From the IMG/VR virus record IMGVR_UViG_3300032435_000019: a stretch of 43,703 nucleotides of DNA; one strand, written 5' to 3'. The notes under the pieces were generated by a model. It did not search any database. It was given only the letters and a program-made list of their open reading frames with translations, and was not told where the DNA came from. A program made the translations under genes and the position numbers. The first letter of the stretch is position 1; every line of letters begins with the position of its first letter. Below are positions 17,909 to 32,890 of this stretch, in pieces. Origin of the DNA: a virus.

Positions 17909-19612
17909 CTAAGTTTCTATGGTGCCGTCGATCAATGGGATCGCTATTAGCTCGCCGGAGCCTAGCAGGGCGACGAGGGTAATCGTGGCGTCTAGCTCAA
18001 CGAATACCAGCGCGCCGCTGGCTGCCAAACTCAATAGTTGAGCTTGCGTTGTATCGCTTATCGCTAGCACTGAGTATTCGTATATGTTCGCCTGCTCGCC
18101 TTCCTGGTCCTGGCTGCTATCGCCCGGGGCGACTGTGGTCGCCTGTAGCGCTAGCGTGACGGTCTCCGCTAGCTGCGCCTGTAGGGCGTCGTTTATGGCG
18201 AGGATGTAGTTTGGCGTGAGCGCTGCGGTGTCGGATAGCTGCTGCTGCCCGAGCGCGTCTGGTGCTATTAGGCCGGCGACCGTGATTGTGGCTGCCGATA
18301 GTTCCTGGCTGGCGTCTGATCCGTCGGCCTGGAGGCTGCTGCGCTGCGTGAGGGCGACGCTGTCGCTTATGGCTATACCTTCGCTCTGGTTGGCGACTAG
18401 GACGTAGCCCTGCGTGAATGCGGTGCTGTCTATGAACTGCTCGGCTTCGCTTCCCTGGATGGTGAGCTGGTGCTTTTGGGTGATCGCTGCTGCTTGCGCT
18501 TCCTGGACCTGCTCGCTGCTGGTTGCCGATAGCGTTCCTGCTTCGGTGAGGTTCGGTGCTTCTGAGGTCTGTAGTTGGTCCGCTGCGTCTGCTGTTATCT
18601 GGCTTTGCTGCGTTAGCGCCGGCTCCTGGGCTTGCTGCTCCTGCAATGTGACGGCAGGCGCAAGGGCGCTTGCCTGGGTGAGGGCCGCGGTTTCTGTGGC
18701 CTGCTCCTGGTCTGTGGCTTGCGGTCCGAGGTTGCTACGCTGAGTAAGGACTACCGATACAAAATTGATCGGCTGTTCTGAGATTTCCGGCGCTAGCTGG
18801 TGCTTTTGAGTCAGCGCCGCCTCGTCTTGCTCCTGGTCCTGCGCCGCGTCGGTGCCTGCTAGCTGATGCTTTTGCGTGAGCGTTACCTGGGCGCTGTCCT
18901 GGTCCTGCGCCGCGTCGGTGCCTGCTAGCTGATGCTTTTGCGTGATCGCCGGAACGCCCGACTGCTGCACTGTGGCTGAGTCGTTTGGTCCGTGGGTGTC
19001 GTTCTGCGCTAGCGTGGTGGTTCCTTGCTCGTGGTTCTGGTCGCTGCCGTTTACTGTGACTATATCGCTGTAGCGGAGCCGCACTTCGAAGCTGTCTATG
19101 TATCCGTTGCCCGATGAATTCTGGACGTTGTTGTTTGTGAGGAGCCAAAAAAGGCCGAAGTCTGCTGATTCAACTTCCGCGATGGTGAGGTTGGTCATTC
19201 CGTATACGGGAGGGCTTTGCTGGGTTGTTCCTGTGCCGCCGTTGCCGGTGTTTATTAGGGGCGCAAGGCCAAAAAAATTGGGGTTTATTGGTGCGGCTGC
19301 GTTCCTTTTTCCGAATACCTGCGCCTGGATGATACCGCCGGCCGATACCGCTTCGCTGTAGCCTTTGACGCGCCACTGTATTTCTTCTATTCGGCGGCCC
19401 GCTGGTATTGAGTCGGAAGCAAAGCCGAATCCGGTGATAGACCATATATCGGTTATTTGACCGGTGAATACACCGCCCTTTGTCAGCGGCTCGGTGTTTG
19501 TGGCGTATGTGGAGTCGGGCTCACCGGTGACGTTGCCGCCGTTGTTTATTGATGTTGCGGACGCGGATTTGAATGCTGCGGCCGTCGGTCTCCTCCATGC
19601 TGTAAAAGCCAT
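17909..19612 (-). CDS. Fibre-like protein with about 11-12 tandem 22-residue (A/V)LTQ repeats (567 aa)
   Basis: A globular N-terminal domain of about 190 aa is followed by periodic units: ITQKHQLAGTDAAQDQDSAQVT / LTQKHQLAGTDAAQDQEQDEAA / LTQKHQLAPEISEQ... / LTQRSNLGPQ... and so on. A hydrophobic C-terminal domain follows. Confidence 0.7.
   Translation of the reverse strand: MAFTAWRRPTAAAFKSASATSINNGGNVTGEPDSTYATNTEPLTKGGVFTGQITDIWSITGFGFASDSIPAGRRIEEIQWRVKGYSEAVSAGGIIQAQVFGKRNAAAPINPNFFGLAPLINTGNGGTGTTQQSPPVYGMTNLTIAEVESADFGLFWLLTNNNVQNSSGNGYIDSFEVRLRYSDIVTVNGSDQNHEQGTTTLAQNDTHGPNDSATVQQSGVPAITQKHQLAGTDAAQDQDSAQVTLTQKHQLAGTDAAQDQEQDEAALTQKHQLAPEISEQPINFVSVVLTQRSNLGPQATDQEQATETAALTQASALAPAVTLQEQQAQEPALTQQSQITADAADQLQTSEAPNLTEAGTLSATSSEQVQEAQAAAITQKHQLTIQGSEAEQFIDSTAFTQGYVLVANQSEGIAISDSVALTQRSSLQADGSDASQELSAATITVAGLIAPDALGQQQLSDTAALTPNYILAINDALQAQLAETVTLALQATTVAPGDSSQDQEGEQANIYEYSVLAISDTTQAQLLSLAASGALVFVELDATITLVALLGSGELIAIPLIDGTIET
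18831..18945. repeat. 66-bp-period tandem duplication inside the fibre-like gene
   Basis: The 49-nt string tcctggtcctgcgccgcgtcggtgcctgctagctgatgcttttgcgtga occurs at 18831..18879 and again at 18897..18945. Confidence 0.9.
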
Positions 19613-20574: not shown

Positions 20575-21153
20575 TTATTCTAACCCGGCCGGTAGCTGGT
20601 CGCTAGCGCCGTCGTCCCAGGGTAGGTCCGGCCATAGCCTTGCCTGATCTGCTTCGTGCTGCGCGATTGCTGTGATCCAGGCGCGGCCTTCCTGGTGCTG
20701 CTCGCCGCAGTCCTCGCAAATGAGCTTTTCCTCGCCTTGCTCTATGTAACTCTCAAAGGCGAAGCTGCCGCAGTCCTGGCACGTTGGGTAGTCGGCTGGC
20801 GAATGGTCCCGCTCCTGGTCGCTTTGGAATAGCGCGGGCATATAGCTCCCTGGCTGTAGCCGGTGCATGACCTGCCATACGTCGCTGCAGGCGTCGTGGT
20901 ATTCCGCGTCGGGGATGCTTTTCTTAAAGTTGTCGTAGGTTAGCGCGTTGATTTCGCCGAGCATCATTTCTTTGAAGTCGCCGTCGCTTACCGTGACGCG
21001 GTATTTGTAATCGGCGTTGTTTAGCTGAGTGACCTGCTTGCCTGGAAATAGCGCCTTGAGGTGCTCCTGGCGTCGGGCTCGGATCATAAAATCGTCCGGC
21101 TTGTTCCGGTGCCTTACTGCGCTGATGAATCCTTTGCTGGTGAATACCCACAT
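20575..21153 (-). CDS. Moron-like gene: conserved-looking N-terminal domain plus a C-terminal CxxC...CxxC zinc ribbon (192 aa)
   Basis: The ORF has its own extended -10 upstream and its own terminator downstream. The zinc ribbon is CQDCGSFAFESYIEQGEEKLICEDCGE. Confidence 0.7.
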   Translation of the reverse strand: MWVFTSKGFISAVRHRNKPDDFMIRARRQEHLKALFPGKQVTQLNNADYKYRVTVSDGDFKEMMLGEINALTYDNFKKSIPDAEYHDACSDVWQVMHRLQPGSYMPALFQSDQERDHSPADYPTCQDCGSFAFESYIEQGEEKLICEDCGEQHQEGRAWITAIAQHEADQARLWPDLPWDDGASDQLPAGLE

Positions 21154-25522: not shown

Positions 25523-27037
25523 TTAATTTTTGCGTTCTCCGCGGAGCATTCCGAGGAGCCTGCCCATTACGGTGGCCCGCTGTACGGTGTCGACTATCTC
25601 CTGGGGCGCGGTCTCCTCCATCATGTCGGCGATGTGCTTTTTGAATGTTTCGAAGTCCTGGTTCTCCTCTAGGTATCCGAGGAGCTGCTCGACCCGCTTG
25701 CCGTAAAGCTCTTTGTATTTGGTGGCGAGCCCTGCCGCGGCGTCTGCTAGTAGTTGCTGGTCGTTCCGGTGCCCTGCCCTGGCTGCCAGGAGGCTGCTTA
25801 TCTCGGCGAACTCCGCGGGCATAGGTCCTTGCCCTCCGGTCATTAGTGCCGGCGGGACAACGGCTTCCTTGCGCTTTTCCCAGCCCATGCCGTAGGTGTC
25901 CTCGATGTATTCGAGGGTCGGGTCGTAGCCTAGTGCGTAGATTTTGGCGTCGCGCTCGGCGCGATGATTGAGGTCCTCCGGCGGCGCTGTGTCCCGTACT
26001 ATCGAGGGCACGCCTGCGCCTGGGAAGTTCCACTCGGTTAGCCACTTGCCGGCGGTCCTCTTGAAGCTGTCGGCTATTAGGTCGCCGTCTGCGTCGGTTA
26101 GGTCGTTGGCGACGCCCTGGTGCACCTCGGCCTGGGATCGGCTGCTGCCGCTGTCCGTGGTCATGGTCTGCGATAGGATTACTTTCGATATTGCGCCGTC
26201 CATCTTTCCGGCTAGCTGGGCGTAGTCGGCGGTTCCGGATCGGGCGGCCTCGATTAGCTCTATGACCATGCTGTCGGGTATTACGACGCCGCTGTCCTGC
26301 TGAATAGATTGGAGGGCCGACTTGGCTTTGCGTATCTGTACCGGGTCGTTCATTTGGCCGTCGGGTATTCTGATGGCGGTGGTTGGCATCCCGAATTTCT
26401 CAAGGAATACGAGCCAGAACTTTATGTCGTTGCGCTTAAAAAATACCGGCCAATAAAGCGAGTGCGCGAGGCCCTGGCCGTAGGGATTGTCGTCGTGGCT
26501 TGCGCCGGCGGCGTAGGTCCAGAACTTGTTTTCCGGCATGACGAGGCCCTGCGAGTGCTTTAGGTCGTCCATTAGCATTAGCTGGTTGTCGACGTTCCAC
26601 TTGAAGCGGGAGCGGTCGCGGACCTTTATCGCGTCGAGGCCGACTTTGTTGTCCTCGGTCATGCCCCACATGAATTCCGCTACGCTGAATCCGTAGAATA
26701 CGCCGTATAGCATCTTGTCGGTTATGTCGTCCCAGCCAACTTTCTCTAGCTGCTGCCGGAGGAATTCCGCGGCCGCTTTGTCTGTTGCCGATTCGCTTTC
26801 CGAATCAATTTTCCATGTGGAACTTGTTAGCGCGCTGCGGCGCTGCTGAAAGCATGACTTGACCTGATCGTCGCGTAGGAGCTCGTCGTATACCTTGAAG
26901 TCGGGCCCGCGGCTTTTGAGCACGCTGTCCGGATTCTGGATTAGCATGTGGGTGTAGGCGTAGCTCATGGCGAAGCCGTGATCGTCGTGCGCCATTTCCT
27001 GCTGCAGCGGTTTTGCTGGTTTCTTTTTGGTAGCCAT
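25523..27037 (-). CDS. Portal protein (Mu gp29 / DUF935-like)
   Basis: 504 aa, between TerL and MuF. The N-terminal pattern ...NPDSVLKSRGPDFKVYDELLRDDQVKSCFQQRRSAL is typical of DUF935 portals. Confidence 0.9.
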   Translation of the reverse strand: MATKKKPAKPLQQEMAHDDHGFAMSYAYTHMLIQNPDSVLKSRGPDFKVYDELLRDDQVKSCFQQRRSALTSSTWKIDSESESATDKAAAEFLRQQLEKVGWDDITDKMLYGVFYGFSVAEFMWGMTEDNKVGLDAIKVRDRSRFKWNVDNQLMLMDDLKHSQGLVMPENKFWTYAAGASHDDNPYGQGLAHSLYWPVFFKRNDIKFWLVFLEKFGMPTTAIRIPDGQMNDPVQIRKAKSALQSIQQDSGVVIPDSMVIELIEAARSGTADYAQLAGKMDGAISKVILSQTMTTDSGSSRSQAEVHQGVANDLTDADGDLIADSFKRTAGKWLTEWNFPGAGVPSIVRDTAPPEDLNHRAERDAKIYALGYDPTLEYIEDTYGMGWEKRKEAVVPPALMTGGQGPMPAEFAEISSLLAARAGHRNDQQLLADAAAGLATKYKELYGKRVEQLLGYLEENQDFETFKKHIADMMEETAPQEIVDTVQRATVMGRLLGMLRGERKN

Positions 27038-28653
27038 TACTCGTACCCTCCGAAGTCGTTGTTACTGCGCACGCCCAGGTCTAGGTCGTCCGTTGCTGAA
27101 TGCCTGCTCCTGCCTGTGTCGGAGAAGCCTGCCCTGGTCGTTCCGCTGCTGTGGCTGTCTACTGCCATTTTCGAACTGTGAGCCCATTTCAGGAATTGGC
27201 TGAATGCGTCCACTTGATCGTCGTTGGAAACCAGCGGATAGCCGAATAGCTCGCTTTCGAAGTCGACCAGCCACTCTGCCCACTCGGGCAAATATACGAG
27301 CTTGGCCTCTACTATCGAGGAGACTGCTACTAGCCGCTCGGTCTTGTTGAGCGATTTCGGGTCTATTGCAATGGCCGGCGGCGTGTACCATTCCCCCTCC
27401 TGTATTTTGACGCCTTCGCGTGCTTCCTGGATTAGCGACTGCCCGCTTGCCTTGTCCTCTATGAGAACGGCTATCGGGTTCCACTTCATGCCCAAACTGT
27501 ACATGGAACGCCTGACGTCTGGATATAGCAGGCGCTTCCTGAATACGTCTAGCAAATAGTAGCCCTGCCGCGTTTCGCCCCAGGTTAGGCAGACGCTCGG
27601 GTCGTTGATTTCCTTGTCTTTGTACGCGGTGTCCCAGGATTGAACTATTCGTAAAAATTCGGCCGGCGGTGTGCCATAACGCTGAATCCATGATCGCTGT
27701 ATGAGCGATCCTTCCGCTGGCTTCGGTCGTTGCTGGTATAGGGCGGCCCAATTCCTGCTGCCCCTGTTGCGCTTTTCACGCTGCCAATGCGCCGGCGTGA
27801 ACCAGTCGGTCCATAGATATTCGCCTGCCTCACGCCCGAGCGGGTCGTCGTCCCTGGTGCACTCGGCCTCTAGGCATAGGACGTACCAGGGCTCGCCGGT
27901 GCGGCTTTCGATCCAGCCGCTCTGCCCATCCCACTCCTCCGGCAATATTCGGCCGCTTAGATCGTCCTCGTGCCAGCGGGTCTGGACGATAACGATTGCG
28001 CCTTCCGGTTTTAGTCGGGTGGTGAGGTCGTCCTGGTAGGCGTCCCACGTTTTGTCCCGTATGACCTGCGAGTCGGCCTGCTCCCTTCCCTGGACGGGGT
28101 CGTCTACGATGATTAGCTTGGCCCTGTTGCCGGTTAGGCCGGATAGTATGCCGCCGCACATAAACGTGGCGTCGTTGGTTAGGCTCCAGTCGTTGGCTGC
28201 CCTGTTGCCGGAGCGGAGCTCGGTCTTGTAGAGGTTTTTGAACTCAGGCGAGCTGGTTAGCTGCCGGCCCTTCCGGCCGAACTTGTCCGCTAGCTGGCTG
28301 CCGTAGCTGGTTAGAATGACCGGCTCGTTTGGGTGGTTTGCCATGTAGAACGGCGGGAAAGTTACGCTGACGTAGGTGCTTTTGGCGCTCCCTGGTGGCA
28401 TGAATACCATTAGGCGCTTTATGGTTCCGTCGTTTACTTCCTGGAGCTTGCTGTTGAGTAGGGTGTGGTGCTCCGCGGGCGTTACTCTGTCCGGATAGAA
28501 CTCCTCGCAGTCCTCGTCGTCGTTAAGCGGCGCGCCTGGGATTTTGACGTATCGGCAAAAGGTGTCGAGGTGGCTCGCGGCCTGCTTTCTGTATAGCGCC
28601 TCCTTTGCCTTTACTATCTGGACAAGCGAATCAGTGCGTTGTTGGGCCGTCAT
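27037..28653 (-). CDS. terL: Terminase large subunit
   Basis: Walker A-like motif MVFMPPGSAKST, ATPase motif LIIVDDP, a nuclease-half acidic motif, a size of 538 aa and a position upstream of the portal. Confidence 0.9.
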   Translation of the reverse strand: MTAQQRTDSLVQIVKAKEALYRKQAASHLDTFCRYVKIPGAPLNDDEDCEEFYPDRVTPAEHHTLLNSKLQEVNDGTIKRLMVFMPPGSAKSTYVSVTFPPFYMANHPNEPVILTSYGSQLADKFGRKGRQLTSSPEFKNLYKTELRSGNRAANDWSLTNDATFMCGGILSGLTGNRAKLIIVDDPVQGREQADSQVIRDKTWDAYQDDLTTRLKPEGAIVIVQTRWHEDDLSGRILPEEWDGQSGWIESRTGEPWYVLCLEAECTRDDDPLGREAGEYLWTDWFTPAHWQREKRNRGSRNWAALYQQRPKPAEGSLIQRSWIQRYGTPPAEFLRIVQSWDTAYKDKEINDPSVCLTWGETRQGYYLLDVFRKRLLYPDVRRSMYSLGMKWNPIAVLIEDKASGQSLIQEAREGVKIQEGEWYTPPAIAIDPKSLNKTERLVAVSSIVEAKLVYLPEWAEWLVDFESELFGYPLVSNDDQVDAFSQFLKWAHSSKMAVDSHSSGTTRAGFSDTGRSRHSATDDLDLGVRSNNDFGGYE

Positions 28654-29110
28654 GGCGTCCTATCGTTTTGGCCTCTAGTTCCTTGATCCGATTCTCTAGC
28701 TCCTCGACGGTCATGTTGTCGTAATCGTCCTCGGGCCTGGGTAGGTCGCGGCCCTTGCTGTCGGTGTTTGCGATCTTGTCCGGCGCTTTGAATCCTCCGA
28801 TTGCGGCCTCCTGGCGTGCTAGCTTTTCCCATCGGTCGATATGCTCTAGCGCGCCGCCTTTCGCCTTCGTCCATATCGCCTGCATGAGGATGTTTATTCT
28901 CATCAATTGGCGGGTTCGTAGGTTGTCGATGGTCTGCTGTGTCCGTAGTTCGTACTCGCTGAACGCCTCCTGAACGAGCTGATGCGCTCGGGTCTTGCTG
29001 ACGCCTATCTGCTCGCCTATCTGTTTCAATGAAAGGCCCGCCAGCATTAGGCTCACGGCCATTTCTCGCTTTTGCGCCATTGTGAATTTCTGCTTCATGG
29101 TTTGCGCCAT
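28631..29110 (-). CDS. Terminase small subunit candidate (HTH protein, 159 aa)
   Basis: The N-terminal HTH is LSLKQIGEQIGVSKTRAHQLVQEA. The gene lies immediately upstream of TerL and overlaps it by 23 nt. Confidence 0.6.
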   Translation of the reverse strand: MAQTMKQKFTMAQKREMAVSLMLAGLSLKQIGEQIGVSKTRAHQLVQEAFSEYELRTQQTIDNLRTRQLMRINILMQAIWTKAKGGALEHIDRWEKLARQEAAIGGFKAPDKIANTDSKGRDLPRPEDDYDNMTVEELENRIKELEAKTIGRHDGPTTH

Positions 29111-29120
29111 CGTTCAGTCT

Positions 29121-31436
29121 CTATAGGTTAAGTTCTGAATCCATCGCCGCTAGCTGCAGCGCCTCTAGGTCTACGGTTTTCACTTCGCCGATGGTCTCGG
29201 TGGCTAGCTTCGGGTCTCCTTTACAAAATACCATGACGTTGTCGTATGCCTGAAATACTGTGCGGTGCACTTTGAAGTGGTCTGCGACCGCTTTGCTGAG
29301 TCCCTTTATGTCGCCCAGGCTGGGCTCGCCTTTTGCGAATACCAGCGCGTTCTGGTGCCCTTTCGCTAGCTTCCGGCTGCTGCTGAACATACCGCCGGCG
29401 CGCATGGCGTTGCTTCCTATGTTGGTAAGCAGCACCGCCTCGTTGTAGTAGTGAAGGCCGGCCGCCTGGAAGGCCGCAATGGTATCCTGGACGAAACCCC
29501 TGTAACGCCCTTTGGGGTCTCGTACTTCGCCGACTACGAATACCGCGAATCTGTTGTCCTTTAGCATTTTGCAGCTTTCGCCGATTATGTGGGTGTAGGC
29601 CGCTATAAATTCGTGATATTCGAGGGTCGATAGGTCCTTCGGGTCGTCGCTGTAGACTTCCAGGTCGGCGTATGGAGGGCAACTAAAAACCATATCGTAT
29701 TCGCCTGGGGCGTGTTTTCGGACTTCCCTGGAGTCGCCTTCGATCCATCGCGGCTCTCCCTGGGCCTGTCGCATTATATCGAATGTGCCGACGTCGCCTG
29801 CTACGTTCCAGAATAATGCGCCTTCGCTGGCGTGCTCCTTGATGAATCTCCAGGCTTTGGCGTCGTAGTTGTTGCATGACTCGAAAGGCGGCGGCTGTTT
29901 TGCTGGGTCCTCGAACTTTTCCGGAGCCTCGTATAGCTTAGCCCTTCCGACCTGGGGGTCTTTGCCTATGGCTACCGCGTGGAATTCAGCGTCAGGCCAA
30001 GCCTGCTGTAGCGCCCTGGTTAGGACGCCGCTTCCTGCTACGGTCCAGACTTCGGTCGGTGTTTCTCCGGTCTCTAGCGCGACGGCCGCTATGGCGTCGA
30101 TGAAGTCCTGGTTATCTAGGCCGAATTCGATGTAGTGCGCGCCGGTCTCCTCGGCGAAGTCTCGGGCGGCCTTTTGGGTGGCGATTAGGTATCTCGCGTC
30201 GACTTCGTGGACTACTGCTCCGGCTCGCGCTGCGGCTTCGGTCCTGGCGTGCGGCTTTTTGCGTCGGCCTGCGACGAATATATGCGCTTGCTTCCCTGTT
30301 GCCCTGGCTGCGGCCGCTAGCGCTATTTGCGCGAAACCATAGGCCGGTGTGGCGTACACGAAGGTGGTCTCGGGAGAGGCGGCGAGCACTCGCTCTAGCG
30401 CCCTTCGTTTGGTGCCGCCGAATACATCGTCGTCGCGGAGTACTCGGATGCCGTCGTGCTCCTGGATTCTGGTTGGTGGTAGGTCTGCCGCCGGCTTCCC
30501 TGGTGTTTGGGCTCCGAGTATTTTGAAGGCCTGTTGTCGGTTAGCCTGTATCTGCTCGCCGCGTAGGTCGATGCCGGTGTAGTTGTAGCCGAGGAATCCT
30601 GCGACCAATCCGCGGACGCTGCCGCCGGCGAACGGGTCTAGGATCGCGCCGCCTGGAGGGCAAAACCATGAGTAGCTTATCTCGGTTAGCACCGGGTCGA
30701 ATATGCTTGTTCCGGTTAGCGTTATCTCCTCGGGGAATTCCTCGACGAACTCCTGCCAGGTTAGCTTGCGCCCGCGCTGGGCTTCTACCTTGTTTTTGAA
30801 TTCGTAAACGCCTGGAGGCTGGCTGCTGACGGCGTAGGTTAGGCCGCGCTCTGTTTTGTCGCCCTCGTTGCCGCGGCCTAGTTCTGACTGGATGCCTAGT
30901 TGTAGCCATAGGTTCTTGCGGTCCTTCCAGTAGCCCTGCTTGGCGTCTAGCACGCTGAATGGCGGGACGAGGAAGCGCTGCTGTAGTCCTTGGCGCGCTT
31001 CCTCCTGCTGCCCGCCTCCGAAGTCCGGACCGTCGTCGGATAGTAGGCTTTGGAGAAATGCGTTCGCGGCCATATCGCCGACGCTGTGTATGCCTTCGAT
31101 TAGGTCGTCTAGTAGTCCCTGGTCCTGGGTGGCGAGTGCTGATATTGGGTCTATTGCTGCTAGCGCGATCCGCTCCTCGTTCTCGGATAGCTCGACGTAT
31201 TTTACCGGCACGCGCTCGCTCCGGCTCATGGCTAACTGAACGCGGAGGTGGCCGTCGATGATGTGGCCGGTGGTGGTGTTGACTATGACGTCCTGAATCC
31301 AGCCGATTTCATTTAGCACGCCGGCTAGCGCATCTTGCTGGTGCTTTGGGTGGTAGCGGAAGTTGTGCGGGTTGGCTAGTAGCTGCTCGGGGTCCTCGGT
31401 GCCGCTTCCGGTGATTCTGTTTTTCCAGTCGGTCAT
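29121..31436 (-). CDS. ParB-like domain / DNA amino-methyltransferase fusion, carrying an inserted PLP-enzyme-like domain (771 aa)
   Basis: ParB/Srx-like domain at aa 15-100. MTase motif I is LDPFAGGSVRG (aa 266-276) and motif IV is FSCPPYADLE (aa 584-593). The segment aa 322-548 resembles ACC deaminase / D-Cys desulfhydrase (IRVLRDDDVFGGTKRRALERVL, TVAGSGVLTRAL, ALFWNVAG). Confidence 0.85.
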   Translation of the reverse strand: MTDWKNRITGSGTEDPEQLLANPHNFRYHPKHQQDALAGVLNEIGWIQDVIVNTTTGHIIDGHLRVQLAMSRSERVPVKYVELSENEERIALAAIDPISALATQDQGLLDDLIEGIHSVGDMAANAFLQSLLSDDGPDFGGGQQEEARQGLQQRFLVPPFSVLDAKQGYWKDRKNLWLQLGIQSELGRGNEGDKTERGLTYAVSSQPPGVYEFKNKVEAQRGRKLTWQEFVEEFPEEITLTGTSIFDPVLTEISYSWFCPPGGAILDPFAGGSVRGLVAGFLGYNYTGIDLRGEQIQANRQQAFKILGAQTPGKPAADLPPTRIQEHDGIRVLRDDDVFGGTKRRALERVLAASPETTFVYATPAYGFAQIALAAAARATGKQAHIFVAGRRKKPHARTEAAARAGAVVHEVDARYLIATQKAARDFAEETGAHYIEFGLDNQDFIDAIAAVALETGETPTEVWTVAGSGVLTRALQQAWPDAEFHAVAIGKDPQVGRAKLYEAPEKFEDPAKQPPPFESCNNYDAKAWRFIKEHASEGALFWNVAGDVGTFDIMRQAQGEPRWIEGDSREVRKHAPGEYDMVFSCPPYADLEVYSDDPKDLSTLEYHEFIAAYTHIIGESCKMLKDNRFAVFVVGEVRDPKGRYRGFVQDTIAAFQAAGLHYYNEAVLLTNIGSNAMRAGGMFSSSRKLAKGHQNALVFAKGEPSLGDIKGLSKAVADHFKVHRTVFQAYDNVMVFCKGDPKLATETIGEVKTVDLEALQLAAMDSELNL
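29793..30473 (-). other. Inserted fold-type II PLP-dependent-enzyme-like domain within the methyltransferase (aa 322-548)
   Basis: GGTK(343)RRALE matches the GGNKxRKLE Schiff-base lysine motif. AGSG matches the phosphate-binding Gly loop. This is a motif match by eye only. Confidence 0.6.
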
Positions 31437-31494: not shown

Positions 31495-31767
31495 TTACTT
31501 GGCGGGTGCGGGCTCGGACTGGATCGCTTTGATCGTTCGGACGAGCTCCGCGTTCCTGGTGAAGCAAATACCGGCGCGCCGGTTATTTTCAATCATTGCG
31601 TCGAGTACGTCTAGGTCGTTGTCGGTCGGTGGTTCAATTAGCGGCGGCGTCGGCTCTAGCAGCGGCTCCGGCACTGTTAGCTTCACGCACGCTGGCGGTG
31701 ACTGCGCGCAACCAATCAGGCCCGAGGTCGCAATTAGAAACGCTAGGGCGCTTGATATTCTGGACAT
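31495..31767 (-). CDS. o-spanin (outer-membrane lipoprotein, Rz1-like)
   Basis: Signal peptide with lipobox LIGC (MSRISSALAFLIATSGLIGCAQ), a Pro-rich mature part, and a start inside the i-spanin gene in another frame. Confidence 0.8.
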   Translation of the reverse strand: MSRISSALAFLIATSGLIGCAQSPPACVKLTVPEPLLEPTPPLIEPPTDNDLDVLDAMIENNRRAGICFTRNAELVRTIKAIQSEPAPAK

Positions 31768-32008
31768 TGCGGTTTAGCTCCTCGTTGGTCTGCTGTACGT
31801 CGCGCATGATGCCGATGGTCTTTTTCTGGAAAGACTCGAGTGTTTCTATGGCTTCTGCCATTTGTCCGGCCTGGGCGATGTTGATTTTCTGGAGTTGGTT
31901 TGTTGTTCCCTGGTGGTATCCGTAGCCGTAGAGGCCCAGGCCTGTTGCGGCTATGGCGGCGATCCACCATTTTGCTCCGGAGAAGAATGTTAGCACGCCG
32001 GCGATCAT
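31634..32008 (-). CDS. i-spanin (Rz-like)
   Basis: An N-terminal transmembrane segment (MIAGVLTFFSGAKWWIAAIAATGLGLYGY), a coiled-coil periplasmic part, and an overlap with the o-spanin gene. Confidence 0.8.
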   Translation of the reverse strand: MIAGVLTFFSGAKWWIAAIAATGLGLYGYGYHQGTTNQLQKINIAQAGQMAEAIETLESFQKKTIGIMRDVQQTNEELNRNVQNIKRPSVSNCDLGPDWLRAVTASVREANSAGAAARADAAAN

Positions 32009-32337
32009 TGTGGTTTTTCGTCGTCCTCGGGGTCCCAGCTTTCGTCGGTGCCCTTCTTTGGCTCCTGGCTGAATAGCTCGGCTTCGGCCTGGGCTTTTTT
32101 GACGTCGGTGAAGTACTCGGCTGCGTTGGCGAAACTGTAGGCGACAATGTTGGCCTGGGTGATGGCGCTATAGTCGGCTCCGTCTAGCCAGCCAAATACC
32201 AGCGCTATGGTGCTGAATACCTGGGTGCCTGCTGATAGCTGCCATTTGCGCGACCGGAACTTGTCGTCATGTGGTGGCACTGGTTTAACCCCAAAGGTGG
32301 CGCTCGGTGAGTAGCGTGTAGGAGAATTTGGGCCCAT
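32005..32337 (-). CDS. Membrane protein, holin candidate (start uncertain)
   Basis: A hydrophobic segment (GTQVFSTIALVFGWL), a charged C-terminus and a position between the endolysin and the spanins. An in-frame GTG just after the endolysin stop is an alternative start. Confidence 0.45.
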   Translation of the reverse strand: MGPNSPTRYSPSATFGVKPVPPHDDKFRSRKWQLSAGTQVFSTIALVFGWLDGADYSAITQANIVAYSFANAAEYFTDVKKAQAEAELFSQEPKKGTDESWDPEDDEKPQ

Positions 32338-32890
32338 GTTCCTTTGCCGCTCGGTTTACGATAGCCATTAGAAGGCTGTAGTCGGCGCGTCGGGATATGA
32401 CTTGGCAGCCGGCGCTCCACTTTCCGATCTCGTTGCTCTCGGCGCTGGCTTCGTGGAGGTTTATTCCGAAGTAGCCGGTCTCCTCCTGGGTGAAGTCGAG
32501 CACTTCGTCTTTGTTGTTGTCCCTGTAGACCTTGATTGGGCCGCGCTGGACTAGCGCCTCGTATTTCCCGCGGTGCTTGCCTATGCTCCAAACGCTGCGG
32601 TATTGCCCTGGGACCACTATCGCGGTGCCTTTTACGTTCATGGGGTTCTGCCGCCAGTAGGTGCCTGGGTCGGTGGTGGCGGCAAAGACCATCAATTGCG
32701 GGTGGTCGAACTGCCGGAAGGCGAGCACGATCCAGTCGTTGAATAGGTTGCTCCGATTATCGTCGGTGCGAACGCCGATGATATTTAGATTGAAATCTCC
32801 ATTATCGAAGAATGCATGGCCGAGCTGGGCCTGCACCTTCCGGAGGTGCTCGTAGGTTAGTCCGCTCATTCGCTGGGTTTGTTTATCCAT
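32285..32890 (-). CDS. Putative endolysin / cell-wall hydrolase with a YkuD-like His...SxGC motif (201 aa)
   Basis: GINLHEASAESNEIGKWSAGCQV resembles the L,D-transpeptidase-fold catalytic His/Cys signature. It sits in the lysis cassette. The alternative start at 32869 makes an ATGA overlap with the upstream stop. Confidence 0.5.
   Translation of the reverse strand: MDKQTQRMSGLTYEHLRKVQAQLGHAFFDNGDFNLNIIGVRTDDNRSNLFNDWIVLAFRQFDHPQLMVFAATTDPGTYWRQNPMNVKGTAIVVPGQYRSVWSIGKHRGKYEALVQRGPIKVYRDNNKDEVLDFTQEETGYFGINLHEASAESNEIGKWSAGCQVISRRADYSLLMAIVNRAAKEHGPKFSYTLLTERHLWG

Follow-up and report, generated by a model that had tools for sequence, protein, structure and literature searches.

Why should a DNA methyltransferase carry a second, pyridoxal phosphate (PLP)-type enzyme in the middle of its catalytic fold? 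The question is raised by a 771-amino-acid (aa) open reading frame (ORF) in IMG/VR virus record IMGVR_UViG_3300032435_000019, whose 43,703 nucleotides (nt) were analysed as a whole and are referred to below as the window. The original prediction described a ParB-methyltransferase (MTase) protein split by a PLP domain resembling 1-aminocyclopropane-1-carboxylate (ACC) deaminase. It proposed chemistry on the amino-acid part of S-adenosylmethionine (SAM), leading either to a non-methyl DNA modification or to SAM cleavage. We find that each of the two PLP lineages of this MTase belongs to the PHROG family of a known DNA-acting PLP decarboxylase, and the window protein looks like a variant of phage post-replicative DNA hypermodification that lies outside any characterised system. 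Our preferred explanation, which we hold tentatively and put somewhat short of an even chance, is a two-enzyme DNA-hypermodification module: the MTase-fold core would transfer a 3-amino-3-carboxypropyl (acp) group from SAM to a base, and the PLP domain would decarboxylate it to aminopropyl. The ORF is laid out as follows, with AlphaFold2 (AF2) model confidence given as predicted local distance difference test (pLDDT) scores.

29121..31436, minus strand: whole 771-aa ORF, in the order ParB domain, conserved middle region, MTase N-part, PLP insert, MTase C-part and tail
31008..31388, minus strand: ParB/Srx-like N-terminal domain, aa 17-143 (phrog_620 and phrog_15396 at E ~1e-11; PDB profile matches to ParB, Spo0J and Noc)
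30672..30986, minus strand: conserved middle region, aa 151-255 ('PPFSVLDxxxGxWxxRKxxW...', including a motif-X-like 'TSIFDPVLxE')
30513..30671, minus strand: N-part of the MTase fold, with beta1, motif I LDPFAGGSVRG (nt 30609-30641), beta2 and helix B (PF01555 profile positions 179-217; alignment with 2zie; DSSP of the AF2 model)
30474..30512, minus strand: N-side linker, aa 309-321 (pLDDT 69 over aa 311-320; variable in alignments)
29793..30473, minus strand: predicted fold-type II PLP domain, lineage A, aa 322-548 (profile, Foldseek and alignment evidence), with K343 (nt 30408-30410), G468-S-G470 (nt 30027-30035), Y524-D-A-K527 (nt 29856-29867) and FWNVA (nt 29799-29813)
29754..29792, minus strand: C-side linker, aa 549-561 (pLDDT 75 over aa 551-560; variable in alignments)
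29307..29753, minus strand: C-part of the MTase fold, with beta3 and motif III GDS (nt 29730-29738), beta4 and motif IV FSCPPY (nt 29670-29687), and beta5-beta7 (2zie alignment over aa 562-645; phrog_12517 and phrog_498; invariant C586-P-P-Y589)
29124..29306, minus strand: C-terminal tail, aa 711-771, little conserved (pLDDT 39-62)

Translation by sub-range places LDPFAGGSVRG at aa 266-276, GSG at aa 468-470, FWNVA at aa 542-546 and FSCPPY at aa 584-589. Together with the PHROG ParB families, this confirms the ParB-like N-terminus and the motifs that had been read from the sequence. Within the ParB domain, G62 and R65 of the GxxR phosphate motif are at least 90% conserved among homologues, and Pfam PF02195 matches only part of the ParB-MTase homologues. 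The middle region accompanies ParB wherever the module is made of separate genes.

The bounds of the insert (about aa 309-561) come from insert-less relatives of 508-525 aa, which join 'ANRxQAxxILG' straight to 'xxxWIxGDS' (aa ~308 to ~557). These relatives are ~250 aa shorter than the window protein and have ~65-70 residues between motifs I and IV, much as the original prediction had it for ordinary fusions (some 300 aa shorter, with motifs only tens of residues apart). As also suggested there, aa 322-548 are not a target-recognition domain: this candidate was ruled out because insert-less relatives are empty at the site and the PLP protein exists alone. Nor does the insert carry a signature of foreign DNA, its GC content being 0.608 compared to 0.585 for the ORF and 0.572 for the window. 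It should also be noted that a database twin (P0001, on a JGI contig of 43,699 bp) has Cys in place of the window's Phe339 (nt 30420-30422), one residue ahead of the GGTK lysine motif, at a position that is variable across the family.

The PLP domain and its kinship to DNA-acting decarboxylases

The insert is a predicted fold-type II PLP domain of the ACC-deaminase/D-cysteine-desulfhydrase branch, as originally proposed, with Pfam, PHROG, PDB profile and structural searches in agreement. The phrog_7093 profile matches aa 327-546 of the ORF at E 5e-29, and PF00291 (PALP) matches aa 342-490 at E 3.8e-8 with 33.5 bits, slightly under its gathering score of 35. Four homologues score above that threshold (P0023, 57.1 bits; P0006, 44.0; P0109, 38.8; P0030, 38.0). 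A profile of 61 homologues found threonine and serine dehydratases, D-cysteine desulfhydrase and the ACC-deaminase homologue 1j0a among PDB sequences at E 1e-5 to 2e-7, with cysteine synthases and tryptophan synthase beta also among the matches. The AF2 model of the insert has a pLDDT of 93-98, and its top 50 Foldseek matches in the PDB are all fold-type II PLP enzymes, with 1j0a at a template modelling (TM) score of 0.63 and a root-mean-square deviation of 3.2 Å. Foldseek against BFVD returned mainly matches to the MTase and ParB parts and nothing new on the PLP part. The window has no match to TIGR01275 or TIGR01274 (ACC deaminase/D-cysteine desulfhydrase), and the lineage B homologue P0023 reaches 39.8 bits against a cut-off of 289.4.

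Alignment with E. coli DcyD (from the K-12 genome) pairs K343 with the Schiff-base lysine K51, the Gly/Ser loop (G468-S-G470) with the phosphate loop, and Y524-D525-A526-K527 with Y-T-G-K ('DPVY(T/E)GK'), in which Tyr and Lys are invariant. The Schiff-base lysine and the Gly-rich phosphate loop of the original prediction are thus both borne out, and the equivalent of K343 is present in all 61 full-length homologues and all free-standing forms. The parallel that had been drawn to the 'QSN' hallmark did not hold. This loop of DcyD, where Ser78 and Asn79 contact the substrate carboxylate and PLP O3', reads 'YGF' in the lineage of the window (lineage A) and 'QSP' in a second lineage (B), so that the Asn is absent. 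DcyD is also longer than the domain by ~100 residues, and in lineage A four residues that follow the phosphate loop are deleted.

The two lineages are told apart by their motifs, 'VVRDDxVxGGTKRRAL ... PAYGFAQ ... VAGSGV ... NYDAKAW ... LFWNVA' in lineage A and 'KRDDLxxVAGVRGGKxR ... SRxSPQVN ... PVGSGM ... LDPxYEAK ... LLWxVG' in lineage B. The Lys, Tyr, second Lys, W543 and loop Ser are invariant across both and across a third, T4-like lineage. Three outcomes that could have overturned the prediction turned out the other way: a PLP fold was found, its lysine is conserved, and the insert is not the usual target-recognition domain of the clade.

The characterised proteins closest to the two lineages are M6 gp52 and ViI gp226, PLP-dependent decarboxylases of amino acids already attached to DNA bases (Lee et al., PMC8989533). 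The former converts Calpha-glycinyl-T to 5-aminoethyl-dU and the latter O-seryl-T to 5-aminoethoxymethyl-dU; both absorb at 410-425 nm, and gp226 was modelled on 1j0a (PMC8989533), the structure that also heads the Foldseek list of the window insert by TM-score. M6 gp52 is a full-length match of phrog_7093 (E 2e-159). The T4-like lineage matches this family at 1e-35, and the window insert does so at E 5e-30, covering profile positions 15-278 of 279. In hhalign, K36 of gp52, its proposed aldimine lysine, pairs with K343 ('SFSKIRG' and 'GGTKRRA'), and the C-terminal pairing sets 'PFPCNPFYDLKAWKW..VFWNIG' of gp52 opposite 'PPFESCNNYDAKAWRF..LFWNVAG' of the window. The two proteins share a signature, PFPxxxxYDxKAW...FWN(I/V), which cellular relatives are without.

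A corresponding picture is seen for lineage B. ViI gp226 is a full-length match of phrog_3650 (E 2.5e-241). Lineage B also has its best family match there (E 1e-31 to 7e-35; hhalign probability 97.9), and an unusual 'SPQ' motif is common to gp226 and lineage B. In the mycobacteriophage Vincenzo, gene 2 overlaps the ParB-MTase gene 1, and gp2, which carries 'YEGK', matches gp226 over its full length (BLASTP E 2e-23).

The methyltransferase-fold core and its proposed decarboxylase partners

PF01555 (DNA methylase) matches the ORF with 30.9 bits compared to a gathering score of 26.7, in two pieces of swapped order: the motif I end of the profile lies at aa 259-297 and the motif IV end after aa 560. 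LDPFAGGSVRG aligns with motif I of 2zie, 8urk and CcrM, although FAGGSVRG differs from the usual FxGSGTT. Motif IV is C586-P-P-Y rather than (D/N/S)PP(Y/F), is invariant in the subfamily, and sets its Cys opposite the Ser of the 2zie SPPY. In the AF2 model, beta1 (264-267), helix A, beta2 (285-290) and helix B (293-307) precede the insert, and beta3 (562-566, with GDS), beta4 with C586-P-P-Y589 and beta5-7 follow it. Motifs therefore run X-I-II and then III-IV-VIII, as opposed to the beta-class order IV-VIII, target-recognition domain, X-I, and the halves of 2zie match swapped. From this order of secondary structure and motifs, the core appears to be a circular permutation of the beta-class arrangement. 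Among 8,000 candidates scored, 2,961 were homologues at E <= 0.001, and the named ones are annotated as methylases or ParB proteins. No member of the subfamily turned up that has been characterised.

The insert sits in the connection between helix B and beta3, which by fold topology would lie opposite the cofactor face of the Rossmann sheet, and its two linkers are the least confident parts of this region of the model (pLDDT 69 and 75). The original argument that the insert acts on SAM because it lies between the SAM pocket and motif IV is therefore not sustained, as the connection would point away from the cofactor and the PLP protein is more often a separate gene or a terminal fusion. The loop is a general insertion hot spot. 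In P0094, P0098, P0103 and P0106 the region equivalent to window aa 309-561 takes other inserts; in P0106 the insert is ~190 aa long without a Pfam match, and in homologues without ParB a second MTase-like domain (PF03602/PF07669) occupies the loop. Elsewhere in the fold, the C-terminal MTase half of P0074 (1129 aa) is interrupted by a LAGLIDADG_3 (PF14528) insertion that resembles an intein or homing endonuclease.

A search with the insert profile revealed more than 100 clusters of free-standing proteins of 226-235 aa that are 52-61% identical to the insert, and lineage B is also free-standing, at 240-275 aa. HMMER against 1.84 billion representatives gave 593 matches at E <= 1e-30. In 145 of 160 IMG/VR loci, an MTase of these families lies at most 2.5 kb from the PLP gene; 7 of 13 exceptions are truncated contigs. 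The MTase also adjoins the PLP gene in nearly all of the 13 bacterial-genome loci found. Arrangements include a ParB-MTase with the PLP insert in its loop, a ParB-MTase followed by a separate PLP gene, three genes in the order ParB, PLP and MTase, and MTase-PLP, PLP-MTase and ParB-PLP fusions. On AT-rich T4-like contigs, the PLP gene overlaps an MTase that has no ParB and is permuted in the same way ('GWGGR ... TSPPY'). An in-loop position is thus not required, since the same PLP protein is commoner as a free-standing gene beside the MTase or as a terminal fusion. Two loci that seemed to hold an MTase split by a gene (L001 and L004) were rejected, as tblastn showed a contiguous MTase core from which only ParB and the middle region are separate.

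Lineage B occurs mostly as an in-loop insert and lineage A mostly as a separate gene. Outside the insert (ParB, middle region and MTase core), proteins with a lineage B insert are 55-65% identical to the window protein. They share its insertion point, while their inserts are only 21-27% identical. Because such diverged lineages sit at the same site in similar scaffolds, the loop must have gained or swapped its PLP cassette on two occasions or more. The module is found in temperate lambdoid phages, mycobacteriophages, cyanophages and marine T4-like phages; the closest insert-less relatives occupy the same place in syntenic lambdoid phages with no PLP gene nearby. Among cultured phages, the PLP partner is carried by Vincenzo and AlanGrant (Mycobacterium), R6L and ZS04 (Erythrobacter), Pam4 and Mae-JY30, and the SpeD-type partner described below by ZRG1 and P2559S. 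Cultured material also includes prophages of Comamonas denitrificans CCUG 44425 and Acidovorax sp. Leaf78. The literature searched yielded no characterised protein of this architecture, in keeping with the original prediction, and no paper describing the PLP-MTase association, though an earlier computational mention may exist.

Some loci add further components. P0361 (1081 aa; L101:5001-8246) combines an MTase, a 2-oxoglutarate oxygenase of the Asp/Asn-beta-hydroxylase type (PF05118, E 1.6e-13) and a PLP domain. In a metagenome-assembled genome of Bdellovibrionota (L096:4502-5696), a Cupin_2 gene precedes the PLP gene, and TrmB and a type I HsdR gene are close by. Some variants of the module may include an oxygenase or cupin step. 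In 10 representatives (P0256, P0261 and P0278 among others), the PLP domain is joined to a conserved region weakly similar to YunG (PF24585), and in P0253 and P0285 to DUF3102. At L100:5001-7022, an MTase of the 'SSGWGDR...TSPPYF' type lies just upstream of a PLP-domain fusion gene. Two lineage B genes (L103:5001-5831 and L104:5001-5828) stand beside genes for a topoisomerase IA, an HU-like protein and an AAA protein (intein-bearing in L103); they have no MTase of these families within 5 kb and are exceptions to the pairing.

In three relatives, a SpeD-like decarboxylase, not homologous to the PLP domain, is encoded directly downstream of the MTase. In Pseudomonas phage ZRG1, a 129-aa gene annotated as adenosylmethionine decarboxylase (AdoMetDC) overlaps the ParB-MTase gene. 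Its product, in which the 'SESH' self-processing site is retained, matches Thermotoga AdoMetDC (1tlu) at E 6.6e-16. Croceibacter phage P2559S shows the same MTase and SpeD-type arrangement in the overlapping pair gp66/gp67, and in IMG/VR locus L198 a SpeD-like gene lies directly downstream of the MTase. All three SpeD-coupled MTases have motif I changed from FAGGSVRG to FAGD(S/T)VFG (Gly272 to Asp, Arg275 to Phe), compared to none of more than 120 other relatives, which include PLP-coupled and uncoupled ones. E. coli SpeE, the spermidine synthase that uses decarboxylated SAM (dcSAM), has GGGDG at the equivalent loop, where the Asp would keep out the SAM carboxylate. Since the Arg is lost and the Asp gained only where the partner removes the SAM carboxylate, the MTase-fold enzyme appears to read the amino-acid end of its cofactor. 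This suggests that the cofactor of the SpeD-coupled enzymes is dcSAM, from which aminopropyl would be the only sensible group to transfer. No core-motif residue separates PLP-coupled from uncoupled MTases; only the SpeD-coupled set differs. Some 3.6 kb downstream of the MTase-SpeD pair, ZRG1 has a further gene (L197:8588-9001) for an 'Nmad5 family putative nucleotide modification protein'.

Candidate reactions of the module

Building on the architecture, the PLP fold and its conserved active site, the coupling to the MTase, the decarboxylase kinship and the replacement by SpeD, we infer each chemical step of the scheme below, as well as its target base and product. The ParB domain would keep the enzyme on DNA, where the permuted (C/S)PPY core would bind SAM, flip a base and transfer acp, not methyl, to an exocyclic amine (adenine N6 or cytosine N4), with methylthioadenosine (MTA) as the by-product. 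The tethered PLP domain would then use K343 to engage the alpha-amino group of the acp on the DNA in a Schiff base, and would decarboxylate the acp. The product would be an N-(3-aminopropyl) base, cationic and polyamine-like, on progeny DNA just before packaging; the SpeD-coupled relatives would arrive at the same product via dcSAM. Microcin C is aminopropylated in a comparable manner, by the MTase-like acp transferase MccD and the PLP decarboxylase domain of MccE (PMC10491745). We detected no 5-hydroxymethyldeoxyuridine (hmdU) pathway or other DNA-modification genes in the window (no 5-hmdU DNA kinase, amino-acid:DNA transferase or dUMP hydroxymethylase), which leaves SAM as the sole visible donor of such a group (an amino acid). 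Acp transfer followed by decarboxylation is the simplest way to account together for the PLP-MTase coupling, the gp52/gp226 kinship and the SpeD partners. As for the chemistry first proposed, on the amino-acid part of SAM and leading to a non-methyl base, it survives as the best explanation of the comparative genomics and not by the positional argument.

Several observations weigh against this scheme. Phage SpeD homologues have often been neofunctionalised to ornithine (Orn) or arginine (Arg) decarboxylases (PMC10407285). Identity between window and gp52 is ~26%, with an hhalign probability of 65.6 against the single gp52 sequence; the PALP score of the window is slightly under the Pfam threshold, and the Asn that binds PLP O3' in DcyD is not kept. 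Fold-type II enzymes also switch reaction type easily. No MTase is nearby in about 6 PLP loci whose flanks are complete, and eight relatives without a detected decarboxylase partner (P0012, P0013, P0016, phiFL3A gp36, B054 gp77, HCTV-2 gp11, Funu2 and prophiT37-1 gp72) share the FAGGSVRG-type and CPPY motifs. If these uncoupled relatives methylate, the window MTase may be a plain methyltransferase too, because the motifs are the same. Finally, we know of no PF01555-type enzyme that transfers acp, and to our knowledge acp- or aminopropyl-DNA has never been reported.

The uncoupled relatives can also be read the other way. In a wider proposal that we consider rather unlikely, the permuted (C/S)PPY 'DNA methylases' of tailed phages as a whole, partnerless members included, would be DNA acp/aminopropyl transferases and not methyltransferases, making N6-acp- or N6-aminopropyl-adenine or the N4-cytosine equivalents as new bases, with gp52-like PLP, gp226-like PLP and SpeD-like enzymes as interchangeable finishers.

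The main competitor to acp transfer, possible although we doubt it, is that the core is an ordinary DNA amino-methyltransferase making N6-methyladenine or N4-methylcytosine and the PLP domain an accessory enzyme for a free small amino acid. Such a helper might remove S-adenosylhomocysteine (SAH) or homocysteine by elimination to a 2-oxo acid, or decarboxylate amino acids to polyamines for packaging. The matches of the core to PF01555 and solved N6/N4 MTases fit this account, as do the close uncoupled relatives with identical catalytic motifs, the lyase-rich ACC-deaminase/DcyD branch of the PLP domain with its conserved Tyr and acidic residue, the adjoining terminase gene, and the ability of phage SpeD homologues to act as Orn/Arg decarboxylases. 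Hosts with the module presumably use SahH rather than Pfs. However, for both PLP lineages the closest characterised proteins have DNA-borne, not free, amino acids as their substrates, and fusion in every order with two insertions in the same loop would be surprising for a helper with a housekeeping role. Furthermore, only SpeD-coupled MTases show the Arg-to-Phe and Gly-to-Asp switch, which implies that the MTase itself senses which cofactor end bears the carboxylate. The SAH- or homocysteine-clearing helper in particular lost ground given the gp52/gp226 kinship and the SpeD partners.

The two steps of the preferred scheme could instead run in reverse, the PLP domain turning free SAM into dcSAM and the core then moving aminopropyl to the base, as spermidine synthase does to putrescine. 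The SpeD-coupled relatives, with their AdoMetDC fold, retained processing site and GGGDG-like Asp, very probably work in this order, and a dcSAM-first route was also discussed, and not excluded, for microcin C (PMC10491745). Nevertheless, the PLP-coupled MTases keep Arg275 and are without the Asp, which suggests that they bind carboxylated SAM; the substrates of gp52 and gp226 are DNA-borne; and fusing a decarboxylase to a DNA-bound enzyme is most sensible for a DNA-borne substrate. We therefore regard the reverse order as decidedly unlikely.

We think it very unlikely that the PLP-like domain is inert, serving a normal methyltransferase as a dimerisation, DNA-binding or regulatory (metabolite-sensing) module. 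This idea draws on the size of the domain (~227 aa compared to 320-340 aa in cellular relatives), the lost O3'-binding Asn, the lineage A deletion, the dimeric nature of fold-type II enzymes, and a loop that accepts unrelated inserts too. Yet M6 gp52, which is equally short (278 aa), binds PLP and is active (PMC8989533). The invariance of the Lys, Gly/Ser loop, Y-(D/E)-x-K and W543 over three lineages and hundreds of clusters, free-standing proteins included, is also difficult to reconcile with an inert domain.

We rank the remaining alternatives lowest. Destruction of SAM as an anti-restriction measure, by PLP-driven gamma-elimination to MTA and 2-oxobutyrate or ACC that would starve host defences, had been part of the original prediction and agrees with the likeness to ACC deaminase and with SAM being a good substrate for such elimination, but we judge it highly improbable, as the domain is fused to a SAM-requiring enzyme, its relatives of known activity are decarboxylases, and a late operon beside the terminase would act too late to shield the infecting genome. 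Transfer of acp or aminopropyl to a non-DNA acceptor (polyamine or protein) by a phage analogue of spermidine synthase would mirror the E. coli speE-speD pair and suit the packaging genes close by, but is just as improbable for a core homologous to DNA amino-MTases, with a base-flipping xPPY motif, a ParB DNA-binding domain and PLP relatives that act on DNA.

The phage hypermodifications known so far are built on 5-hydroxymethyl-pyrimidines or deazaguanines and require clusters of several genes. If the acp scheme is true, one or two genes would suffice to place a cationic side chain from the amino-acid end of SAM on ordinary bases after replication, giving a new DNA base and calling for reinterpretation of a large 'DNA methylase' gene family. 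The restriction resistance or nanopore/PacBio anomalies of some phages might be explained, and the enzyme could offer a compact means of site-directed amine labelling of DNA. If the core only methylates, relatives of DNA-acting PLP decarboxylases have a second job tied to methylation.

Phage setting and comparison with known systems

The ORF is a late-operon gene of a lambdoid temperate phage. The window contains cI-like, Bet/RecE, O/P-like, RusA-like and Q-like genes, a lysis cassette, the ParB-MTase-PLP gene, terS and terL. No close cultured relative of the window phage was found. The genes on either side of the ORF are the following.

28631..29110, minus strand: small terminase-like gene (helix-turn-helix), directly downstream (syntenic loci L186-L188)
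27037-28653: terL, next after the small terminase-like gene
31495..32890, minus strand: lysis cassette, upstream, with spanin-like overlapping ORFs, a holin-sized ORF and an endolysin-like gene (32285-32890)

Within the lysis cassette (31495-32008, minus strand), the ORF at 31495-31767 has a lipoprotein-like 'LIGC' signal and lies partly inside 31634-32008, which looks like an embedded o-spanin/i-spanin pair. Two ORFs of the structural module, at 17909-19612 (567 aa) and 20575-21153 (192 aa), both on the minus strand, have no PHROG match, and the 567-aa ORF has no tblastn match in 50,697 phage records. In syntenic lambdoid phages, a small gene with weak or faint similarity to the Acb2/Tad1 hairpin (anti-CBASS/anti-Thoeris sponge family) lies directly upstream of the insert-less ParB-MTase (L186:4639-4953 and L187:4645-4953).

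Of the known systems, gp52 and gp226 are the closest to the PLP domain. They are short, 1j0a-like fold-type II proteins of phrog_7093 (as is lineage A of the window) and phrog_3650 (as is lineage B), with the Lys, Y-(D/E)-x-K and (F/L)W(N/I)V signatures, and are phage-encoded and post-replicative. In contrast, they are only ~25% identical to the window or lineage B, and their partners are a 5-hmdU DNA kinase and an amino-acid:DNA transferase acting on 5-hmdU, whereas the partner in the window family is a SAM-binding MTase-fold enzyme only, with or without ParB in the module. Unlike gp52 and gp226, the PLP domain of the window family can be inserted into its partner.

For the proposed chemistry, the nearest analogy is MccD with the N-terminal domain of MccE (MccE-NTD), where an MTase-like enzyme transfers acp and a PLP decarboxylase makes aminopropyl (PMC10491745). 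The acceptor there is a peptide-nucleotide phosphoramidate, whereas the proposed acceptor of the window protein would be DNA. MccE-NTD also belongs to a different PLP fold. SpeD and SpeE likewise pair a decarboxylase with an MTase-fold aminopropyltransferase in adjacent genes, and the Asp in the Gly loop of SpeE is like that of the SpeD-coupled relatives. The window protein differs from this pair in having a PLP and not a pyruvoyl decarboxylase, in keeping Arg275, and in being a PF01555 rather than a PF01564 homologue.

Ordinary phage fusions of ParB with N6_N4 MTases share the ParB-CTPase-fold N-terminus and PF01555, are enriched in phages and prophages, and often lie beside the terminase; the survey that describes them does not mention a decarboxylase partner (PMC12704722). 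The window subfamily is set apart from these fusions by its permuted motif order, its CPPY and its atypical motif I. ACC deaminase and DcyD (TIGR01275, COG2515) provide the best structural matches (1j0a and 4d8t) and the 'KR(D/E)D...GG(N/T)K' and 'Y-(T/E)-G-K' motifs, although the window domain is ~100 residues shorter, does not keep the 'QSN' Asn and scores far below the curated cut-offs. The likeness to ACC deaminase that had been noted at the outset therefore stands for the branch of the fold and not for the nearest characterised relatives, gp52 and gp226: in the phage clade these are decarboxylases, compared to the deaminating lyases of the ACC-deaminase family.

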